From assembly GCA_001443445.1 (NCBI GenBank), contig LDXN01000008.1:3707-67706 (forward strand): a DNA stretch of 64,000 bases, in the 5' to 3' direction. A program made the translations under genes and the position numbers. Of the stretch, positions 11,174 to 62,427 are shown piece after piece (the first letter of the stretch is position 1; each line of letters opens with the position of its first letter). Below the pieces are notes generated by a model. That model searched no databases. It was not told the DNA's origin and saw only the letters and a list, made by a program, of their open reading frames with translations. This stretch comes from Candidatus Dadabacteria bacterium CSP1-2 (GTDB lineage Bacteria > Desulfobacterota_D > UBA1144 > Nemesobacterales > CSP1-2).

Positions 11174-11201
11174 GTAGGGGTACGTTGCAACGTGCCCCTA
11201 C
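11174..11201. repeat. REP-like palindrome GTAGGGGTACGTTGCAACGTGCCCCTAC (intergenic, ald-obg)
   Basis: Near-perfect 28-bp palindrome. 27/28 identical to the copy embedded in RAYT copy C at 46550-46577, and both are followed by TATC. Confidence 0.85.
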
Positions 11202-12327: not shown

Positions 12328-12334
12328 CGCAGAA

Positions 12335-12973
12335 TCAACCACAGGCAACTATCTCTTTAAGTGAGCTATGTCTAAAAATTTCTTCTTCTAATACGTCTTT
12401 GGCAATTCTTTTTGGATTTTCTCTATCGAGGTGCCATTTTAATGGATTGTTTTGAATATATTCTCTGATTTTTTGTAATTCATCTTCATTACGGATTATA
12501 TGTTCATAATAATTACGTTGCCAGAATTTACGATGAAACGAGGGTAGTATATTGTGTTTTACCCCACGAATGTATTCGTTTGTGGTCATTGTTTTAAACC
12601 ATTGAATAATTTTACGTAGGGGCGAACCTATGTGTTCGCCCTGTAAATCCATGTCTTTGCCATTGTTATTTGGGCAGACACGCAGGTCTGCCCCAACATT
12701 TGTTTCAACAATTGTTATAATGCCATGAAAATGGTTGGGCATAATGATATATTCATCAATTTTTATATTTGTGAATTTGTTGGGTAATACCACCCACCAT
12801 TTTTCAATAATCTGCCCAGCAACATACAATTCCACTTTGTCATTTTTAATCTCGCCTAATAAACATTCTCTATTATGCGTGCAAATCGTTATAAAATACA
12901 CCCCCGGTTGTGAATAATCGTATTCTTTCAATCGTATTGACCTTCTATGATGAACATCAGGATTGTATTTCAT
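12335..12973 (-). CDS. REP-associated tyrosine transposase (RAYT, IS200-like HuH), copy A, intact frame
   Basis: 212 aa. N-terminal HRRSIRLKEYDYSQPGVYFIT, HuH motif MPNHFHGII, catalytic Tyr region WQRNYYEH. Carries an in-frame REP-like insert (12616-12694). Confidence 0.8.
   Translation of the reverse strand: MKYNPDVHHRRSIRLKEYDYSQPGVYFITICTHNRECLLGEIKNDKVELYVAGQIIEKWWVVLPNKFTNIKIDEYIIMPNHFHGIITIVETNVGADLRVCPNNNGKDMDLQGEHIGSPLRKIIQWFKTMTTNEYIRGVKHNILPSFHRKFWQRNYYEHIIRNEDELQKIREYIQNNPLKWHLDRENPKRIAKDVLEEEIFRHSSLKEIVACG
12616..12694. repeat. two REP-like hairpins inside the RAYT-A ORF (GTAGGGGCGAACCTATGTGTTCGCCC ... GGGCAGACACGCAGGTCTGCCCC)
   Basis: Palindromes read directly. The first unit is identical, as reverse complement, to the intergenic unit at 55041-55066. 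The insert length preserves the frame. Confidence 0.8.
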
Positions 12974-13098
12974 ACCGACCTTGCCATTTCTAACCTAAAC
13001 TCACACACAGACCAATATATCTCGTCTTGTTCCTGTTGTGTTAGACCAAGAATATCAAACACTACTTCCCCAGCGCTCAGCGGTTGGGTGGCGCAACC

Positions 13099-13320
13099 CT
13101 ACTTTGCAGATATGCTTTGTAATGTTCGCGCCCGAAGCCCAATAATCGTAATGCCTACAACTTCTTTTTTCTTCTCGTCGTAGCGAACGATAATGCCCTC
13201 GCCGATATCCGTTCCAACTGCTGGGCGGGGCTCGCCGACAGAAATGTAAAGCACATCCGCCTCCTCATCGTATTCCCAGCTTAGCGCTGGTGTACCCTCA
13301 AGGATTTTTAACGCTTCCAT
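13099..13320 (-). CDS. DUF2283-family small protein
   Basis: 73 aa. WEYDEEADVLYISVGEP matches the DUF2283 core. The ORF is visibly more GC-rich than its flanks. Confidence 0.55.
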   Translation of the reverse strand: MEALKILEGTPALSWEYDEEADVLYISVGEPRPAVGTDIGEGIIVRYDEKKKEVVGITIIGLRARTLQSISAK

Positions 13321-13321
13321 A

Positions 13322-13932
13322 TCACTTCCCTACATATACCTCGTGTTTAAAAATTTCATCTTCCAATGCATCTGTGGCAATTTTCTCTGGATTTTCTCTA
13401 TCTAAATGCCATCTTTGTGGATTATTTTGAATATATTCCCTGATTTTGTTTAATTCATCTTCTTTGCGGATAACGTGTTCATAATAATTTCGTTGCCAAA
13501 ATTTACCAACTATATCAATCCTATTTTCTTTTATGTACTTTAACCAATCATGTACGCATAGTGATTTAAACATTCCAATAATTTCACCAATTGTAGGGGC
13601 GGTCTTGCACCCGCCCTATTATTTGGGGCAATTGTAGGTGCAGGCCTTGCGCCTGCCCTATTATTTGGGGCAACCGCAAGGGTTGCCCCTACAAATATTA
13701 TCCCATGAATATGATTCGGCATAATGATGAACTCGTCTAGTTGTATATTGTCAAATCTGCTTGTTATTTCATGCCATTGCCGATTGACCATCTGCTTTAG
13801 TTGTGGATATTGTTCAAAATACAATTCTTTATTATCTGTACAAATCGTTATAAAATATGCCCCTGGCTGTGAATAATCGTATTCTTTCAATCGTATTGAC
13901 CTTCTATGATGAACATCAGGATAGTATTTCAT
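13322..13932 (-). pseudogene. RAYT copy B, split by a frameshift inside a REP-like insert (ORFs 13540-13932 and 13322-13573)
   Basis: The N-terminal ORF has HRRSIRLKEYDYSQPGAYFIT and MPNHIHGII and then reads through the REP units as VGATLAVAPNNRAGARP. The C-terminal ORF has WQRNYYEH and NNPQRWHLDRENP. The two frames overlap at 13540-13573. Confidence 0.75.
13593..13692. repeat. REP-like cluster of three hairpin units (with a tandem duplication) inside RAYT copy B
   Basis: GTAGGGGCGGTCTTGCACCCGCCC, GCAGGCCTTGCGCCTGC and GGGCAACCGCAAGGGTTGCCCCTAC. The motif CTATTATTTGGGGCAA is duplicated. Confidence 0.8.
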
Positions 13933-13942
13933 ACCGATTACA

Positions 13943-15076
13943 TTAAGTGTTACGATCTGATAGATAATCTTCTAAAGATTTATAAGTTTTTACAATCTTA
14001 AGTCCTTTAATTTCTAACCTTTTCTTTACCTCTTTTCGATTACGATCAACAAGTATTATCTCGCTTTTCTGAGGTAACATTGAAAGTAAAAGAAACGCAT
14101 TAGAATCCTCTGGTCTAAAACTGTATCCTATAATAACAAGTTCTTCAGTTTCTGACATAACTTTAATTGCAGATTGCCAAATTTCGTACATTTCTTTTCT
14201 TTCAAATGGCTTAATAAAAGAGGGCAACATACATCCTGGCCCATAGCCTCCTACATAACCCGGGTTTATTTTATCTGGATGTCTATCCAGTAATCCTTCA
14301 AAATGTAATTGATTACTTTCTCTATTGTCCATTACAATTACAATATAATCTCTACCACGCAGTTTCTCGATTGATCTAAGGCTAGGTGGTTCCCAATTAA
14401 TAGAACCATGCATCTTATGAATTCTTAATATGGAACACTTATTTCTTTTTTCTAAGCATTTCTTGTCCTCATCCCGTTCAAATTCTGAAACACCCACATA
14501 CCCATCCAAAGGAGACCAAATACCAGCACTAAGCAATGCTTTTTCTAAAACCAAATCGTAGTTAAATGTGATGACTTTATCACTTGAGTTGATAATTTTT
14601 GAAAACTTTTTAGCCAAGATATTTCCTTTAAGTCTAACAAAAACTAGGTAGAAATAGGTTTGAATAATATTTCTTATCCTTTCTAGTTCTGTTTTACTTG
14701 TAAACCACCAAGGTATCGCTGAATGAGGTTGAATATTAGATCCTTTTTTCTCAAACCGAATATTTGGACCATTTAGATGCAGGTCAATTAAAGTAATGAG
14801 ATATTCTAAGTTCTCTTTTATCTCGGTGGATATTTTATCAGAATCATACTTTTCAAATCGAGAAGTTGCTTCCTTTTCTAATCTTATTATGAAGTTATTT
14901 AAATTATTAAACCAATTAGCTCTCAACTCTTTATCTTCAGGATTTAAATCTTTTCTACTTTTTTCTCGTTTGTACGCTCTTTCTATACAACACCATAGTT
15001 CTTTCATCAAAGGACCATCAGCCACGGCCTTAGAAAATCCAGCACCTAACAAAAAGGTTCTGTTTATATTTCCCAT
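13943..15076 (-). CDS. standalone SIR2-like (SIR2_2 family) protein; candidate NAD-depleting defence effector
   Basis: 377 aa. N-terminal FLLGAGFSKA, ITFNYDLVLEKAL (TNYD-like), KMHGSINW (HGS motif) and C-terminal VIIGYSFRPEDSN, which match the SIR2_2 signature blocks recalled from memory. The ORF is AT-rich relative to its neighbours. Confidence 0.65.
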   Translation of the reverse strand: MGNINRTFLLGAGFSKAVADGPLMKELWCCIERAYKREKSRKDLNPEDKELRANWFNNLNNFIIRLEKEATSRFEKYDSDKISTEIKENLEYLITLIDLHLNGPNIRFEKKGSNIQPHSAIPWWFTSKTELERIRNIIQTYFYLVFVRLKGNILAKKFSKIINSSDKVITFNYDLVLEKALLSAGIWSPLDGYVGVSEFERDEDKKCLEKRNKCSILRIHKMHGSINWEPPSLRSIEKLRGRDYIVIVMDNRESNQLHFEGLLDRHPDKINPGYVGGYGPGCMLPSFIKPFERKEMYEIWQSAIKVMSETEELVIIGYSFRPEDSNAFLLLSMLPQKSEIILVDRNRKEVKKRLEIKGLKIVKTYKSLEDYLSDRNT

Positions 15077-15205
15077 CTACACACCAAATTGTCCAGTTTT
15101 ATGTTAATAGGGAAGTCCTCAAGTAGCAATGGTAAATCTTTGTGTTTAGTGAAGGGAGTTAAGAAAAGGTGGCAAATACGTTATCAAACCAAACCTAAAG
15201 TTAAA

Positions 15206-16069
15206 CTACACCCTTAGTCGGGCTTTTGCGATTTGGATTTGTTTTTGCCCCATATCCCTTGATCTCAATCTTTCCCATATAAAAACGCTCGTTATAGAGA
15301 CAAAGAGAATAATCGTTCCAACAGCGTTTATCTCTGGGGTCATTCCTCTTCGGAGCATTGCCCAAATCTGCATAGGAAGCGTGTTATCCCTTCCAGTGAG
15401 GAATATCGTCACGATGATTTCATCGAAAGATAAAGTAAATGCAAGTAAAGCTGCGCCAAGAAGAGCAGTTGTTATATTCGGAAGAACTACGCTGAAAAAT
15501 GCTCTCCATCTATTTGCCCCAAGGTCCATTGCCGCAAGAACCATAGATTTATCCATCGCTTTTAGACGTGCTAAAACCTCTAAATAAACTACTGGTATAC
15601 AGAATGTGATGTGTCCTATTGCCACTGTAATCAAAGAAAGATCAAACTTTGCAAACGAGCAAAAAAGAAGAAGTGCAACACCTGTTATGACACCTGGGAA
15701 AGTTATCGGCCATGTGGAAACCCTATGAAAAACGCCTTTTAGTGGGAATATGAACTCATCCATTGCAAGAGCAAGAAGGGTTCCCACAATCAGAGAAAAA
15801 ACAGTTGCAGCAATTCCCACTTTAATGCTGTTAAAGACTGCCTGCATCAGATCGTTATTATTTAGAAACTCCTTATACCAATAAAAAGTAAATTTCTTAA
15901 ATGGAAAATAACTGAAAGGGGCTTCGTTAAATGAAAATATAACTACGATAATAATGGGAGAATAAAGAACTAGGAAGAAGATAAACACATAGAGCCTGAG
16001 TATAAAATCTCCAGCACTAAATGATTTTGCTAGTTCGTGTGTTTTTTTAATCCTTAATTCTTCCTGCAT
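15206..16069 (-). CDS. potC: ABC transporter permease (PotC/PotI-like, polyamine)
   Basis: 287 aa, 6 TM, with an EAA-like loop (AAMDLGANRWRAFFSVVLPN). Confidence 0.8.
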   Translation of the reverse strand: MQEELRIKKTHELAKSFSAGDFILRLYVFIFFLVLYSPIIIVVIFSFNEAPFSYFPFKKFTFYWYKEFLNNNDLMQAVFNSIKVGIAATVFSLIVGTLLALAMDEFIFPLKGVFHRVSTWPITFPGVITGVALLLFCSFAKFDLSLITVAIGHITFCIPVVYLEVLARLKAMDKSMVLAAMDLGANRWRAFFSVVLPNITTALLGAALLAFTLSFDEIIVTIFLTGRDNTLPMQIWAMLRRGMTPEINAVGTIILFVSITSVFIWERLRSRDMGQKQIQIAKARLRV

Positions 16070-16101
16070 GATATTTATCTATGCCAAAATGTAATTTCAA
16101 T

Positions 16102-16206
16102 GTAGGAGCGCCATCCCTTCGACCGTTCGATCCTTCGATAAACTCAGGGCTCACGGCTCAGGAGACATGCTTGGCGCGACAGGTCGCGGCTAGAAGCCGC
16201 TCCTAC
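16102..16206. repeat. REP-like/MITE-like element with GTAGGAGCG...CGCTCCTAC termini in the potB-potC spacer
   Basis: 9-bp inverted termini about 90 bp apart, with an internal hairpin GCGCGACAGGTCGCGG. Confidence 0.7.
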
Positions 16207-16208
16207 CT

Positions 16209-17063
16209 TTATATCTCCATACCGCTATAACGTGCGGCAATCTTCTCGCTTATATAAAGTATGAAGGCCACGAGAAGTATCAGGACAAGACCATTTGCCG
16301 CTCCAAGTGTCCATTGAAACGCGCTTCCAAAAAGACTCCAAACGATATTTCCAATCATGATTCCCTCAGGACCTCCGACCAATAGGGCCGCGACAAAGTC
16401 ACCTACACTTAGAGCAAACACCGAGGTAATTCCTGCTATAACACCTGGAAGGGTCAGAGGAAATATAACGCGCCAGAAGGTTGTAAACCTTCCCGCTCCG
16501 AGATCATATGAAGCCTGAAGAAATTCGTCGGGGATTTTTTCAAGCATTGCATACACTGGGATGATTAAAAAGGCTATAAAAGCCATAGTAAGCACTAAAA
16601 TTAGGGCAAACTTGCTGTAAAGGAGAATACTAAGAGGTTCATCAATTACCCCGATAAAGAGTAAAAATTGGTTTATTACCCCGTTTGTCCCTAGAACTAT
16701 CTTCCATGCATATGCCCTTACAAGGTAACTAATCCAGAGTTGCATGATTATAAGAAGCAAAAGCAAATTTTTATATTTTTTAAGTCTATATGCAATGAAA
16801 AAGGCAACCGGATAACCTAGTATAAGTGCGAGTATTGAGACAGTAACCCCGATACCAACTGTTTTAAGGATAGTTCCATAGTAAAGAGGAGTTGTAAAAA
16901 TCTTTACGAAGTTCTTGAGTGTAAATTCCTTGATAATCGTTAGGTATTCTGTATCCCAGAACGAGTAGATAAGAAGCGAGCTGTATGCGAAGATCTCAAG
17001 AATAGTAATCCATAATATTGGAACTATAATTAGGACGATAAACTCGAGCCTTCTTCCCTTCAT
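16209..17063 (-). CDS. potB: ABC transporter permease (PotB/PotH-like)
   Basis: 284 aa, multi-TM, EAA loop (ASYDLGAGRFTTFWRVIFPLTLPG). Confidence 0.8.
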   Translation of the reverse strand: MKGRRLEFIVLIIVPILWITILEIFAYSSLLIYSFWDTEYLTIIKEFTLKNFVKIFTTPLYYGTILKTVGIGVTVSILALILGYPVAFFIAYRLKKYKNLLLLLIIMQLWISYLVRAYAWKIVLGTNGVINQFLLFIGVIDEPLSILLYSKFALILVLTMAFIAFLIIPVYAMLEKIPDEFLQASYDLGAGRFTTFWRVIFPLTLPGVIAGITSVFALSVGDFVAALLVGGPEGIMIGNIVWSLFGSAFQWTLGAANGLVLILLVAFILYISEKIAARYSGMEI

Positions 17064-17085
17064 GCCATTTAACTATAAAAATATT

Positions 17086-17167
17086 GTAGGGGCAACCCAT
17101 GCCTGTGGCGAGCCCAGTCGAGCCACGGTTGCCCAAAAGATAGGGCGGGTGCAAGACCCGCCCCTGC
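17086..17167. repeat. composite REP-like element (nested palindromes) in the potD-potB spacer
   Basis: GTAGGGGCAACC...GGTTGCCC encloses GTGGCGAGCCCAGTCGAGCCAC and is followed by GGGCGGGTGCAAGACCCGCCCCT. The last unit is identical to 62122-62144. Confidence 0.8.
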
Positions 17168-17220
17168 GGTTAACAACGCAATGACACTAAACCTTAAATA
17201 AAAAGAGACTTAGACCTAAT

Positions 17221-18312
17221 CTACTTTGCAGTCTTGAATGCCTGACGGACCTCGTTGTATTCGCCTTCATTTTGTATCGGCTGCCACCACTTGATCTTCT
17301 TTGAGGCCTCAACTATGTAGTTCGGGTCGTCAATATGTGTGAATGCCTTCTCGTCAGGTGTCATAAGTGGAGCAGCTTTTGGGTTAACTATGAAGTAGTT
17401 AGTTACCTTGAAGACTGCATACTGTCCCTCTGGGCTGATGGCAAAATTAATCCACTTCTCTGCCATGTCCTTATTCTTAGTTCCTTTTACAACCATCCAC
17501 TGGTCTATCCATCCCGAAGTACCTGGATCAGGGATGCACTCTGCCACAGGGATACCCTGCTTTTTAAGATCAAGGGTTATTATTGGCCAAGAGATTGAAG
17601 CTACAACCTCCTTGTTTGCAATAAGATTTGTAAGCTCACCGGCTGTTGACCAAAATGCCCTTATCTGCGGCCTCCACTGAATAAGAAGCTTCTTTGCCTC
17701 TTCAAGCTTCGCTTTATCCATGGTATAAGGGTCAGTACCAAGGAGGATCCCTGCCTGGAATACGGCTGTATTATCCTCACCAGGAACTGAGAGCTTCCCT
17801 TTATATTTCGGATCCTTGAAGATATCCCATGGGGGACAACTCGTAAAAACATCTGTGCGATAGGTTACTGGGTCTGGCCCCCAGGTGTAGTTTACGCCAT
17901 AGACCTGCCCATCCTTCTTGTTGTAATCCAGCTTTCTAAAGAACTCGAAGATATCATTGTAGTTGGGAACGTTTTTGAGGTCTATAGGCTGAACTAGGTC
18001 AGAGTCAATCATACGCTTTGGCAAGTTGCTTGAAAGTGCGACAAGGTCGTAGGAAGCGGCCCCACCTGCCTTTACCTTGGCGAAAAACTCATCCATGCCC
18101 CCAACGTATGTTCCCTTTACCTCAGCACCGTACTTTTCTAAAAACACCTTTGTGAAGGACTCATCTGTATAGCCCTCCCACACAAGGGCACTTAGCGTGA
18201 CTTTGGCAGCCTTTGAGGTCCCCGTCACAAAAAGTCCCACCAATAGCAAGGCTCCAATGAATAAAGCAGCGCCTGCTACTATCTGCTTCCTAAAATTTCC
18301 CTTCTTCTTCAT
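17221..18312 (-). CDS. potD: periplasmic polyamine-binding protein (PotD/PotF-like)
   Basis: 363 aa with a signal peptide and solute-binding family 1 architecture. Confidence 0.8.
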   Translation of the reverse strand: MKKKGNFRKQIVAGAALFIGALLLVGLFVTGTSKAAKVTLSALVWEGYTDESFTKVFLEKYGAEVKGTYVGGMDEFFAKVKAGGAASYDLVALSSNLPKRMIDSDLVQPIDLKNVPNYNDIFEFFRKLDYNKKDGQVYGVNYTWGPDPVTYRTDVFTSCPPWDIFKDPKYKGKLSVPGEDNTAVFQAGILLGTDPYTMDKAKLEEAKKLLIQWRPQIRAFWSTAGELTNLIANKEVVASISWPIITLDLKKQGIPVAECIPDPGTSGWIDQWMVVKGTKNKDMAEKWINFAISPEGQYAVFKVTNYFIVNPKAAPLMTPDEKAFTHIDDPNYIVEASKKIKWWQPIQNEGEYNEVRQAFKTAK

Positions 18313-18338
18313 GTTTCCTTACCTCCTTGATTAGGGAT

Positions 18339-19505
18339 TTAATTTTTTAAAACTATTGCATCCTCTATTTTCCAACAGAAATAAAGAGAATCTCCAATTG
18401 CAAGTTTTTGAAGCAGGGCATCACCCCCTCGCGCCTCAGCTTTTACCTCAAGACCGTTCCCTAAAGTAATTATGTAATCAACCAGAGAGCCTTCGTAGAT
18501 GGTTTCAACGAGTTTTCCCGGAATACAATTTAAATCGTTTGTTCCTTCAAGGTCTCTAAACAAAAATACCCTTTCAGGTCTAATGCCTACCGTTATGCTA
18601 TCGCTAACGTTTACCCTTTCCTTTGTTTTTACAAGAACCTCGCCAACGCCTTCAATCTGTACGATTGCCCTATTTCCTTCTGATCGTATTGCCTTTCCAT
18701 CAAGGAAATTCATCTCTCCTATAAATTCAGCAGCAAAACGTGTAGCAGGATTCTCGTATATTTCCATAGGCGTTCCAATCTGTACTATTTTCCCCTTGTC
18801 CAGAATAAGGATTCTGTCTGAAATGCTTAAAGCCTCCCCCTGGTCGTGGGTTACGTAGATGAAGGTTGAACCTATTCTCTCATGAAGGCTCTTGAGCTCA
18901 ATGAGAAGATGCTGTCTGATTTTTAGGTCAAGCGCGCTTAAAGGCTCATCAAGGAGAAGAACTTCAGGTTCTTTAATTAAAGCCCTTGCAAGCGCAACAC
19001 GCTGCTTCATTCCTCCAGAAAGGTGATGAGGCTCGCTCTTCTCCCACTGTTCAAGCTTCATAAGCCTAAGCATGTTCTTAACCTTTTCCTTAACAACCTC
19101 CTTTTTAACACTGTCAACCTTAAGACCATAGGAAATGTTGCCAAAAACATCCATGTGTGGAAAAAGCGCATAGTTTTGAAAAACCGTGTTCACATTTTTT
19201 CTCTTGTGCGGTGGTATACCATTTACTCGATTACCAAATATGTAAACGTCACCCTCTTCAGGCTCTTCAAACCCACCTAAGATCTTTAAGATTGTGGTTT
19301 TCCCACTACCCGATGGTCCAAGAAAGGAAAAAAGCTCACCCTTCTTTACTTCAAATGAGACGTTGTCAAGGGCAATGAAATCACCGTATCTTTTTGTGAC
19401 GTTCTCAAATACGATTGCTGGCTTCTCAACAGAGGGAAATACCTCCTTGCTTTCTCTTTGCGAATTTGCTTCTTCTTTTATAGCTAGCAATCTTTCTTGA
19501 CTCAT
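18339..19505 (-). CDS. potA: polyamine ABC transporter ATP-binding protein
   Basis: Walker A GPSGSGKTT, signature LSGGMKQRVALARAL, Walker B LLLDEPLSALD, and a TOBE-like C-terminal domain. Confidence 0.9.
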   Translation of the reverse strand: MSQERLLAIKEEANSQRESKEVFPSVEKPAIVFENVTKRYGDFIALDNVSFEVKKGELFSFLGPSGSGKTTILKILGGFEEPEEGDVYIFGNRVNGIPPHKRKNVNTVFQNYALFPHMDVFGNISYGLKVDSVKKEVVKEKVKNMLRLMKLEQWEKSEPHHLSGGMKQRVALARALIKEPEVLLLDEPLSALDLKIRQHLLIELKSLHERIGSTFIYVTHDQGEALSISDRILILDKGKIVQIGTPMEIYENPATRFAAEFIGEMNFLDGKAIRSEGNRAIVQIEGVGEVLVKTKERVNVSDSITVGIRPERVFLFRDLEGTNDLNCIPGKLVETIYEGSLVDYIITLGNGLEVKAEARGGDALLQKLAIGDSLYFCWKIEDAIVLKN

Positions 19506-19631
19506 TTGAAACCTGCAACTATTTAATCACAGATTAACACGAATTTACACTAATAAAATGATGCGACATCCATGATTCACGAATTATCTTATTCATCTTG
19601 CTTCCTGCATCTTGTATCTTGTATCTCATCC

Positions 19632-27009: not shown

Positions 27010-27163
27010 AACTTGAATTTACAATACTATAGTCTTATTTACAATATAAAATATAAAGACTAGATTCGATCACTATAAGTCTCCCATGCTAATATCTTAT
27101 GCTAATATTTGACAAAGGTAAGTTATTCACCTATATTTTGTAGTTTATTACATAAAAGAGTTG

Positions 27164-27236
27164 GGCCCATAGCTCAGCTGGTAGAGCTCCCGGCTCATAA
27201 CCGGAGGGTCCCTGGTTCGAACCCAGGTGGGCCCAC
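27164..27236 (+). tRNA. tRNA-Met (anticodon CAT); an elongator or a tRNA-Ile2 (lysidine) type cannot be excluded
   Basis: Cloverleaf read by eye: acceptor GGGCCCA/TGGGCCC, D-stem GCTC/GAGC, anticodon loop CTCATAA, T-arm CCTGG-TTCGAAC-CCAGG. G1-C72 is paired, so it is not an initiator. CCA is not encoded. Confidence 0.85.
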
Positions 27237-28527: not shown

Positions 28528-28933
28528 GGACGAGTGAACTGGGCGATCGCTGGGTTTTCCAATTTGGATAACCCAGAGGAAAGTCCGAACTCCATAGGGT
28601 AGAGTGCTGGGTAATACCCAGGTGTCGTAAGACAACGGAGAGTGCAACAGAAAACAAACCGCCTATGTTTTTCTATCCTCTATTAGAATTAGAAAAACAG
28701 GCAAGGGTGAAAAGGCAGTGTAAGAGACTACCGCGCAGAATGGTGACATTTTGCGGCTTGTAAACCCCACTCGGAGAAAGACCAAATAGGGAAGTAGCTG
28801 TTTTCTTTTTAAAGAGAACAGGCAGGTAGCCCGCCTGATGCTTCCGGGTAGGTCGCATGAGGCATCCAGAAATGGATGTCCTAGATGAATGATCGTCCAA
28901 GACAGAATTCGGCTTATAGGTTCGCTCGTCTCT
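28528..28933 (+). ncRNA. rnpB: RNase P RNA (bacterial type A)
   Basis: Conserved blocks GAGGAAAGTCCGAACTCCATAGGGTAG, GGGTGAAAAGGCAGTGTAAGAG and GACAGAATTCGGCTTATAGG. P4 covaries (AGTCCGAA / TTCGGCTT). The P1 helix pairs GGACGAGTGAAC with GTTCGCTCGTC. Confidence 0.85.
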
Positions 28934-46335: not shown

Positions 46336-46854
46336 TCATCTTTCGCTGAACCTTCTTGAGTCATAGTCTTTTAGTGTTTTACCTAAGATTTGTGGATTAT
46401 TTTGAATATATTCCCTGATTTTGTTTAATCCATCTTCATTACGAATTATATGTTCATAATAGTTACGCTGCCATAATGGAATTCCTGGTGTTTGATGAAT
46501 ATCATTAATTAGTATTGAATTGGAAACGGGTCTGCCAAATTGTTCAAATGTAGGGGCACGTTGCAACGTGCCCCTACTATCATTGTTAATAACAATAATA
46601 ATTCCGTGAAAATGGTTGGGCATTACAATATACTCATCCAATATCAAATTTCTTCGCAAGTCAAATGTTTTTAGCCATTCTGTTTTAACAATTTCGCCTA
46701 ATTGGTTTAATACTATTTCCCCACCTACTACATCACCAAAAACACATTCTCCTTTTTGTGTACATACCGTTATAAAATATGCCCCTGGCTGTGAATAATC
46801 GTATTCTTTCAATCGAACCGACCTTCTATGATGAATATCAGGATTGTATTTCAT
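46336..46854 (-). CDS. RAYT copy C, with an in-frame REP-like insert and a divergent/shortened C-terminus
   Basis: HRRSVRLKEYDYSQPGAYFIT, MPNHFHGII, WQRNYYEH. The insert is translated as DSRGTLQRAPTF. Confidence 0.75.
   Translation of the reverse strand: MKYNPDIHHRRSVRLKEYDYSQPGAYFITVCTQKGECVFGDVVGGEIVLNQLGEIVKTEWLKTFDLRRNLILDEYIVMPNHFHGIIIVINNDSRGTLQRAPTFEQFGRPVSNSILINDIHQTPGIPLWQRNYYEHIIRNEDGLNKIREYIQNNPQILGKTLKDYDSRRFSER
46550..46577. repeat. REP-like palindrome GTAGGGGCACGTTGCAACGTGCCCCTAC inside RAYT copy C
   Basis: 27/28 identical to the intergenic copy at 11174-11201. Confidence 0.85.
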
Positions 46855-54763: not shown

Positions 54764-54800
54764 GTAGTAGGGGCAGGTTTGAATCCTGCCCCTACAGTAG
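54764..54800. repeat. REP-like palindrome CTGTAGTAGGGGCAGG-TTTGAAT-CCTGCCCCTACAGTAG
   Basis: Read directly. Confidence 0.75.
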
Positions 54801-61948: not shown

Positions 61949-62427
61949 ATGATTATTCAGAGCCAGGCATATTTTATAACGAGTTGCACTCATAATAGAG
62001 AATTGTATTTTGAACAATACCCACAACTAAAGCAAATTGTAAATCTACAATGGCAAAAAATACCAGTCAGATATGCCAATATACAATTAGTAGGGGCAAC
62101 CCTTGCGGTTGCCCAAAAGAATGGGCGGGTGCAAGACCCGCCCCTACAATTGGGGAAATCATTGGAACGTTTAAATCACTGTGCGTACATGATTGGTTAA
62201 AATACATAAAAGAAAACAGGATTAATACGGTTGGTAAATTCTGGCAACGTAATTATTATGAACACATTATCCGCAAAGAAGAACCGTTCAAACGTACACG
62301 TGAATATATTCTAACCAATCCCTTACGCTGGCATTTGGACAGAGAAAATCCCTATCGGAAAGGCGAAGATGATTTTGATAGATGGCTTGAGAGCCAATTC
62401 AAAGATGGAAGGGTCTCTCAATTTTAA
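61949..62427 (+). pseudogene. RAYT copy D: 5-prime truncated, HuH region deleted, frameshifted within a REP-like insert
   Basis: ORF1 ...AYFITSCTHNRELYFEQYPQLKQ... jumps from ANIQL straight into the REP translation VGATLAV. ORF2 has WQRNYYEH and NPLRWHLDRENP. No HuH motif remains. Confidence 0.7.
62090..62147. repeat. REP-like pair (GTAGGGGCAACCCTTGCGGTTGCCC ... GGGCGGGTGCAAGACCCGCCCCTAC) inside RAYT copy D
   Basis: Units shared with 17086-17167 and 13593-13692. Confidence 0.8.

Follow-up and report, generated by a model that had tools for sequence, protein, structure and literature searches.

Can a SIR2 protein with neither a fused sensor nor a partner gene beside it defend a cell against phages? 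The question is raised by a minus-strand gene in a 64,000-nucleotide (nt) stretch of contig LDXN01000008.1 from Candidatus Dadabacteria bacterium CSP1-2 (the window, by which we mean the whole of that stretch), encoding a 377-residue protein of the SIR2_2 family that we call the SIR2 protein. Our preferred reading, to which we give as much credence as doubt, is that it is an autonomous single-polypeptide SIR2 of the immune branch (SIRim), horizontally acquired into a variable interval and acting as an anti-phage effector that destroys nicotinamide adenine dinucleotide (NAD). The subfamily is an uncharacterised branch of a well-known kind of effector, not a new type of system.

Catalytic core, predicted fold and family

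First-pass annotation of the window had proposed a standalone 377-residue SIR2_2-family protein carrying four motif blocks, and both the reading frame and the blocks are real. The open reading frame (ORF) begins with an ATG at 15076 and ends with a stop codon at 13943–13945, encoding FLLGAGFS (residues 8–15), TFNYD (170–174), KMHGSINW (221–228) and IIGYSFRPED (315–324); the start codon is credible because homologues align from residue 1. The Pfam SIR2_2 model (PF13289), the first check that the annotation had called for, matches significantly (E=5e-8, 33.5 bits, above the curated gathering cut-off of 24.5), as it does in 60 of 62 aligned family members. Given this match and the homologues, the set of motif blocks is not a product of chance.

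Residue numbering follows alignment A2, comprising those 62 homologues at 72% down to 25% identity. Invariant throughout are G11, A12, G13, S15, E91, D98, N172, Y173, D174, W187, P189, G192, Y193, K221, H223, G224, S225, G317 and D324; the conserved stretches are the NAD-binding loop, an ENxEYLxTLIDL helix, both catalytic motifs, LPSFIKP and IIGYSFxxED, and the variable residues are 31–90, 101–135 and 201–275. The stretch from TFNYD to KMHGSINW aligns with residues 157–218 of PsSIR2, from the Paenibacillus SIR2-HerA system (profile E=2.7e-9), such that the putative catalytic residues of PsSIR2, N163, D165 and H212 (PMC11472057), correspond to N172, D174 and H223. Loss of the catalytic residues had been named at the outset as grounds for abandoning the idea; judged by these alignments, the NAD-binding loop and the catalytic Asn, Asp and His are intact and under selection.

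The sirtuin family model (PF02146) gives no match to the protein at E<=0.01, and its only cysteines (29, 30, 207, 214 and 282) include no CxxC pair, so the sirtuin zinc module is absent. Pfam calls no further domain, leaving SIR2_2 as the sole one, and the claim that the protein lacks a large C-terminal sensor and is far shorter than DSR1 or DSR2 stands. An AlphaFold2 model built from the alignment (predicted local distance difference test score, pLDDT, 92; predicted template modelling score, pTM, 0.91) consists of a Rossmann-like sheet into which a helical segment of some 140 residues is inserted (~24–160; helices at 24–39, 46–72, 90–101, 128–146 and 153–161), and has no extra domain. Among Protein Data Bank (PDB) structures, Foldseek places the SIR2 subunits of SIR2-HerA at the top (8w9l, E=5e-8, template modelling (TM) score 0.53; 8sub and others), followed by classical sirtuins and then by ThsA and Avs5 at E of about 5e-3.

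The family is large and patchily distributed. A search of a 5.8-billion-protein collection with the SIR2 protein returned 182 homologues at E<=1e-3, and a profile of 62 homologues recovered 245 representatives of 50%-identity clusters at E<=1e-30, a number that rises to 6465 when the threshold is E<=1e-10. Hosts include Dadabacteria, Zixibacteria, Chloroflexota, Ignavibacteria, Planctomycetota and archaea, and nearly all listed members are single-domain proteins of 330–420 residues. A minority carry a C-terminal PD-(D/E)xK (PDDEXK_3) fusion, and such nuclease fusions are typical of conflict systems; in three metagenomic members of about 500–535 residues (P0101, P0108 and P0115) the nuclease domain (PF13366, 118–127 bits) lies C-terminal of SIR2. 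A phage, plasmid or viral origin was considered and rejected: tblastn against phage and plasmid collections gave no match, IMG/VR yielded only distant partial SIR2_2 matches, and no viral structure matched at E<=1e-3.

Set against the Pfam, PADLOC and NCBIfam model sets, the protein is placed by its sequence in the SIR2_2 superfamily, outside the SIR2-HerA, AbiH, ThsA, DSR and SPARSA families as currently modelled. Its PADLOC matches, like those of all 62 members, are restricted to a core of about 65 residues (~155–230), the best being PDLC04093 'SIR2' at 44 bits. The proposed likeness to the SIR2 domains of known defence systems is borne out by the fold, which is closest to the SIR2 of SIR2-HerA and more weakly resembles that of ThsA; the defence models match the core only. 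With ThsA, DSR1/DSR2, the SIR2-APAZ protein of SPARSA and Avs5 it shares a catalytic domain superfamily and presumably the same NAD+ hydrolysis chemistry; unlike it, those proteins possess a SLOG/Macro, large C-terminal, APAZ or STAND sensor of their own or need a TIR or pAgo partner, none of which is present here, and the sequence profile does not detect them. Specifically, Pfam finds neither the C-terminal SLOG or Macro domain of Thoeris ThsA in the protein nor a TIR gene (ThsB) among its neighbours; DSR1/DSR2 fuse SIR2 to a large C-terminal sensor region (about 1000 residues or more), against 377 residues in total here, and no Dsr model is among the PADLOC matches; and the Aga_SIR2 models of SPARSA match the core only (36 bits, residues 156–230), with no Piwi or pAgo neighbour. 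Two catalogued single-gene phage-defence candidates in PADLOC, PDC-S21 and PDC-S25, for which we found no experimental characterisation in the literature, are weakly matched by 13 and 3 of the 62 members, respectively, but these matches are marginal and local (best E about 1e-6), the SIR2 protein itself reaching PDC-S21 at E=4e-3.

Homologue neighbourhoods and the HerA link

We surveyed about 15 independent loci of the close family (hidden Markov model (HMM) score >150), plus some 170 at which the SIR2_2 gene is more distantly related. The roughly 15 close-family loci share no conserved partner gene; neighbours vary at every locus, and clustering of the neighbouring ORFs recovered only RAYT-like genes as recurring beside the close family. 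About half of these loci have defence or toxin–antitoxin genes next door or only a few genes away (Table 1), a pattern that matches the published 12-fold enrichment in defence systems around the SIRim clade, which is predicted to be immune (bioRxiv 10.1101/2024.09.18.613514). A consistent housekeeping context for the homologues, which the first-pass annotation had allowed would undo its proposal, is thus not what we find: neighbours differ from locus to locus and are often of the defence or toxin–antitoxin kind.

Some of these neighbourhoods have features of their own. At L006 (1–2852) the SIR2 gene lies 33 nt downstream of the Dsr1-like ORF, which is cut by the contig end. At L027 (6052–10890), in a Cytophagia metagenome-assembled genome (MAG), the downstream PNP_UDP_1 'PN-superfamily effector' is a PDC-M60C-like protein of 533 residues; a defence island, or a system of several genes, is conceivable here. 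Two different SIR2_2 genes share a neighbourhood at L014 (6560–9101, divergently adjacent, one of them ThsA-like) and at L017 (8001–9047 and 15645–16760, 6.6 kb apart).

The SIR2 subunits of SIR2-HerA (Nezha, or GAO_19; PsSIR2 8w9l, EcSIR2 8sub, 8j4u) are the nearest solved relatives. They are similar in size (360–415 residues), with a helical small domain inserted into a Rossmann core of SIR2_2 type; they share the motifs TxNYDxxxE, DG(F/Y)VG and K(L/M)HGSINW with aligned catalytic Asn, Asp and His, and besides being the best fold match they are the sole PDB family detected by the sequence profile (E=3e-9 and 3e-3). The differences are equally plain: identity is about 15% and the TM score about 0.5, the alignment is confined to a core of about 70 residues, the SIR2 protein falls far under the SIR2_antiphage cut-off, and neither the window nor most family loci have an adjacent HerA. 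In SIR2-HerA itself, a ring-shaped SIR2 dodecamer or tetradecamer docks on a HerA hexamer.

An exception is found in the two closest genomic relatives, from the Zixibacteria MAGs L019 (54% identity) and L022 (56%, frameshifted). Both have the order nurA–RAYT–SIR2–herA on one strand, with the RAYT stop overlapping the SIR2 start by 4 nt and herA starting 18–50 nt after SIR2, which is the canonical sir2–herA order. Because the nearest characterised SIR2s depend on HerA, this order could point to descent of the family from SIR2-HerA systems, but three results speak against it. The HerA scores higher against HerA of double-strand-break (DSB) repair (Sulfolobus 4d2i, 96 bits; NCBIfam HerA_Thermprot, 102; helicase_HerA, 93) than against anti-phage HerA models (45–46 bits); NurA, which flanks it, is the classical repair partner of HerA; and neither the window nor any other close-family locus surveyed has a HerA. 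We read the arrangement as one insertion into a nurA–herA operon, although such a coincidence is hard to dismiss. The two spans (L019 6176–10776, L022 5327–9790) differ in detail, L019 having the shorter nurA ORF (273 versus 352 residues) and a RAYT gene without an HUH motif.

This arrangement bears on the main rival to an autonomous effector, an explanation we consider unlikely, though the one that deserves the closest hearing: that the SIR2 protein is the effector half of a partner-dependent system whose other half, a HerA-type ATPase or something else, is encoded elsewhere or has been lost, leaving the protein silent when alone or an orphan remnant. PsSIR2 alone is auto-inhibited and inactive and needs HerA (PMC11472057), the SIR2-then-herA order occurs in both closest relatives, and the SIR2-HerA subunits are at once the only solved structures found by sequence profile, the best fold matches and, through the SIR2 model of that kind, the best PADLOC match. 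HerA is adjacent, however, in a single independent event among the roughly 15 close-family loci, the others having none within 8 kb on either side, and in that event it scores as the DSB-repair type and has nurA on the other side. As the first-pass annotation had observed, no partner is visible in the window: Pfam calls no HerA, TIR, STAND or pAgo domain within 8 kb on either side of the SIR2 gene (a table covering ±8 kb of contig L001, identical to the window), and tblastn across all 64 kb with the HerA found beside the relatives reached a best E of 0.17, leaving no HerA remnant. The resemblance to SIR2-HerA is itself weak, as the fold score, identity and core-only alignment attest, and catalytic residues that never vary across the entire partner-less family speak against decay. 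A Nezha-type SIR2-HerA system was accordingly rejected for the window, with no HerA remnant there, HerA absent at the other loci, and the Zixibacteria HerA of the repair type and accompanied by nurA.

The variable interval and the case for an autonomous effector

The SIR2 gene stands out in composition, with a GC content of 0.323 and a third-position GC (GC3) of 0.243, the lowest locally, against a window mean GC of 0.399 (standard deviation 0.027 over gene-sized windows); 0.24% of gene-sized windows are as low. The flanking ObgE is 100% identical to that of 'Ca. Dadabacteria bacterium CSP1-2', in keeping with a Dadabacteria host. In a sister Dadabacteria genome, L190, whose ObgE is 87% identical, both flanks are kept (BamD, Def, ACT, AlaDH and ObgE to one side, an aldehyde dehydrogenase of 92% identity to the other), but the interval between obgE and the aldehyde dehydrogenase gene holds unrelated genes, with SIR2, RAYT, DUF2283 and transporter genes all absent. 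Positions 12328–19631 of the window correspond to 11012–19394 of L190, which fills the interval with luciferase-like, TPR, permease and FAD-oxidase genes. The interval is a hot spot of genomic variability. The absence of SIR2 between conserved flanks makes it an accessory gene in a variable, recently remodelled interval, a status to which the atypical GC, the patchy distribution of the family and frameshifted copies such as that in L022 also point.

These facts bear on two further explanations. One, which we regard as very unlikely, is that the protein has an NAD-dependent housekeeping or regulatory role, as a protein deacylase or ADP-ribosyltransferase, and takes no part in phage defence. The SIR2 superfamily does include deacylases and ADP-ribosyltransferases; immediately upstream of the gene, and sharing its strand, is an operon for a polyamine-type ABC transporter, next to aldehyde dehydrogenase and aminotransferase genes; and some homologues have metabolic neighbours only. 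Yet the match is to SIR2_2 instead of the sirtuin family, with no zinc-binding Cys motif; the neighbours are not conserved, the composition is atypical and the gene is missing from a sister species that keeps its flanks; and defence or toxin–antitoxin neighbours are frequent, the experimentally documented bacterial proteins of the SIR2_2 clade all being immune (bioRxiv 10.1101/2024.09.18.613514). The other, which strikes us as more improbable still, is that the gene no longer functions and is decaying as a relic within an accessory block that is itself degenerating. It does adjoin a RAYT gene that is split and further RAYT copies that have decayed, and frameshifted family members exist (L022, L029); but the ORF is full length and keeps every family-invariant residue, and its fold is confidently predicted. 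Moreover, the metagenome contig L099, 99.6% identical in DNA over 7.2 kb, encodes a SIR2 protein that is 100% identical although 25 positions differ.

For the gene organisation favoured by our preferred reading, that of an autonomous effector, the closest precedent is AbiH of Lactococcus lactis (PF14253), a validated single-gene abortive infection (Abi) protein predicted to be SIR2-like (PMC13064643). AbiH too is one gene of about 350 residues with no fused sensor and no partner, is chromosomal and tied to mobile or variable regions, has been placed in the SIRim clade and shows weak HMM similarity, its model being reached at E<=1e-3 by 4 of the 62 family members. The SIR2 protein, from other host phyla, lies below the AbiH gathering threshold and is thus not a member of the AbiH family.

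Under such a reading, the Rossmann core would bind NAD+ via the GAGxS loop, the invariance of whose motif is observed, and N172, D174 and H223 would cleave the nicotinamide–ribose bond, making the protein an NADase, not a deacylase, as homology to the SIR2 of SIR2-HerA, ThsA and DSR suggests. In uninfected cells the helical insertion of some 140 residues, with its invariant E91 and D98, may occlude the pocket, by analogy with the 'small domain' of PsSIR2. A phage-derived cue would act on the variable surfaces (~31–90, 101–135 and 201–275) to lift this inhibition, the likeliest candidates being a protein of the phage or a shift in oligomeric state brought on by infection; NAD+ would then collapse, phage replication would no longer be supported and infection would probably end abortively.

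Several observations weigh against this picture. No curated defence model in PADLOC or NCBIfam matches the protein over its full length; the NCBIfam SIR2_antiphage model (NF042942) gives 18.6 bits against a cut-off of 500, and the AbiH model 17 bits against a gathering cut-off of 30.9. Neither Pfam nor the structural model reveals a sensor domain. The SIR2 of SIR2-HerA, which among characterised proteins is the nearest relative, is inactive without HerA. The neighbourhood evidence is a tally over some 15 loci without a formal control, three loci (L002, L007 and L017) have metabolic or housekeeping neighbours only, and the neighbourhood in the window contains no recognised defence gene, only the RAYT copies, DUF2283 and the transporter. 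Finally, both the NADase activity and the defence role ascribed to the subfamily are read from sequence.

Were the autonomous effector confirmed, it would join AbiH, from which it is phylogenetically distant, as a second case of a SIR2 NADase defending with no sensor fused to it or encoded beside it, and it would extend defence annotation into poorly studied candidate phyla in which PADLOC and NCBIfam give no full-length match. It would also sharpen the question of how a catalytic domain of about 370 residues, with a helical lid only, detects infection while avoiding self-intoxication. Because the SIRim analysis already predicts such proteins, the gain would be incremental, short of a functional role emerging for the HerA or Y1 links.

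Neighbouring genes and the Y1 association

Read in the direction of the SIR2 gene, the locus comprises the transporter, a 129-nt spacer, SIR2, a gap of 10 nt, a split RAYT gene, a DUF2283 gene, an intact RAYT gene and the convergent obgE (Table 1). SIR2 transcription could start from a promoter of its own in the spacer or come by read-through from the transporter operon; a scan of the region for promoter and terminator consensus sites found no more than in shuffled sequence. Beyond what the first-pass annotation had described, the three ORFs directly downstream are thus two tandem RAYT-type Y1 genes, one split, and the DUF2283 gene. The split RAYT gene, which begins 10 nt past the SIR2 stop, is a neighbour, not evidently part of the system; its counterpart in L099 is intact, an ORF of 203 residues. 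The intact RAYT gene of the window is its tandem paralogue (72–92% nucleotide identity), with 7 nt between its end and the stop of the convergent obgE. The DUF2283 gene has the highest GC locally, no DUF4258-type partner and no counterpart beside any SIR2 homologue.

Table 1. Features of the SIR2 locus in the window, and defence or toxin–antitoxin genes near homologues at other loci
Feature	Position	Strand	Evidence or remark
SIR2_2 ('SIRim'-type) gene, 377 aa	13943..15076, stop codon included	-	ORF and Pfam SIR2_2
Codons of G11-A12-G13-F14-S15, GAGxS NAD-binding loop	15032..15046	-	G11, A12, G13 and S15 invariant in 62 sequences
Codons of N172-Y173-D174 (TFNYD), predicted catalytic Asn and Asp	14555..14563	-	Invariant; aligned to PsSIR2 N163/Y164/D165
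Codon of H223 (KMHGS), predicted catalytic His	14408..14410	-	K221, H223, G224 and S225 invariant; aligned to PsSIR2 KLHGS
Four-gene polyamine-type ABC transporter	19505-15206	-	Upstream of SIR2
Intergenic region, 129 nt, from ABC-transporter permease gene to SIR2 start	15077..15205	-	Sequence
RAYT-type Y1 transposase gene, two ORFs (split), 42-nt internal duplication	13322..13932	-	NCBIfam REP_Tyr_transpos, RAYT HMM, repeats D1-D4
DUF2283 gene, 73 aa, between RAYT copies, GC 0.495	13099..13320	-	Pfam PF10049, 40 bits
Intact RAYT-type Y1 transposase gene, 212 aa, HUH at 81, RNYYEH Tyr motif	12335..12973	-	Pfam Y1_Tnp, NCBIfam REP_Tyr_transpos
L006: ORF matching the C-terminal ~400 residues of Dsr1	Directly upstream of SIR2		105 bits
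L027: full-length GajB-like UvrD helicase; PNP-superfamily effector (PDC-M60C)	Upstream; downstream		192 bits (helicase)
L013: DrmC-like PLD			
L014: divergent ThsA-like SIR2			
L009: HicAB			
L011: ParE/HicB			
L016: RelE/Xre and HigB/HTH pairs	One on each side		

An HMM of the RAYT-like neighbours, run over 185 SIR2_2 loci (1930 ORFs), matched in six: the window (with its duplicates L001 and L099), L019, L022, L013, L113 and L071, with L019 and L022 counting as one of five independent settings. The RAYT-like ORFs always share the strand of the SIR2 gene and lie no more than 1.2 kb from it, an adjacency with a rough post-hoc probability of about 1e-4, and the recurrence is an unexplained association. 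It raises the possibility, which we hold to be improbable, that these SIR2 genes are tied to Y1 (IS200/RAYT-type) transposases, whether as passenger or addiction genes or as partners of a domesticated HUH nuclease that senses single-stranded DNA (ssDNA). Besides the recurrence, the 4-nt overlap in L019 and L022 speaks for such a tie, with the RAYT/SIR2 pair lying between nurA and herA as if the two had been inserted together. But the Y1 proteins come from divergent subfamilies (20–50% identity), and the unlinked copy near 46 kb resembles the Zixibacteria copies (47–49%) at least as closely as the SIR2-adjacent Dadabacteria copy does (40–46%). The L019 copy lacks HUH, gene order varies between loci, RAYT copies are homologous only within the ORF and have no element ends in common that would enclose SIR2, and most family loci have no Y1 gene; with two of the window's four RAYT loci among housekeeping genes and two decayed, the element is simply abundant here, and the statistic is post hoc. 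A co-inherited RAYT–SIR2 cassette was rejected: the Y1 subfamilies differ, gene order varies, one copy has no HUH motif and unlinked copies in the window are equally related.

A variant of these ideas joins the two links: the short SIR2 clade may sense in trans, through a housekeeping HerA–NurA or a domesticated Y1/HUH enzyme, with phage DNA ends or ssDNA intermediates handled by that protein triggering NAD+ depletion. We count this a long shot; if true, it would mean a defence effector plugged into a repair or transposase protein.

Four RAYT loci occur in the 64 kb, the intact and split copies beside SIR2 and two others at 46336–46854 (172 residues) and 61949–62427 (decayed); they share 45–51% protein identity, with homology within the ORF only, and the family looks to have proliferated and to be decaying now in this Dadabacteria genome. 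No transfer RNA (tRNA) or other RNA integration site lies near the SIR2 gene; a tRNA-Met (27163–27236, plus strand) and a class A RNase P RNA (28531–28932, plus strand, 315 bits) are housekeeping features unrelated to it. REP-like palindromes flanking SIR2 were also considered and rejected: GTAGGGGYACGTTGCAACGTGCCCCTAC is found at 11174 and 46550 and in variant form at 54768, and none of these copies brackets the SIR2 gene. In full, a GC-rich perfect palindrome of 28 nt, GTAGGGG(T/C)ACGTTGCAACGTGCCCCTAC, lies at 11174–11201, intergenic and upstream of obgE, and at 46550–46577, within the 46-kb RAYT gene just after its HUH motif; the variant, at 54768–54794, coincides with a weak RAYT HMM match. 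Related palindromes occupy the same position in other RAYT copies, and the 28-nt palindrome may be what remains of RAYT genes, or else a REP-like target.

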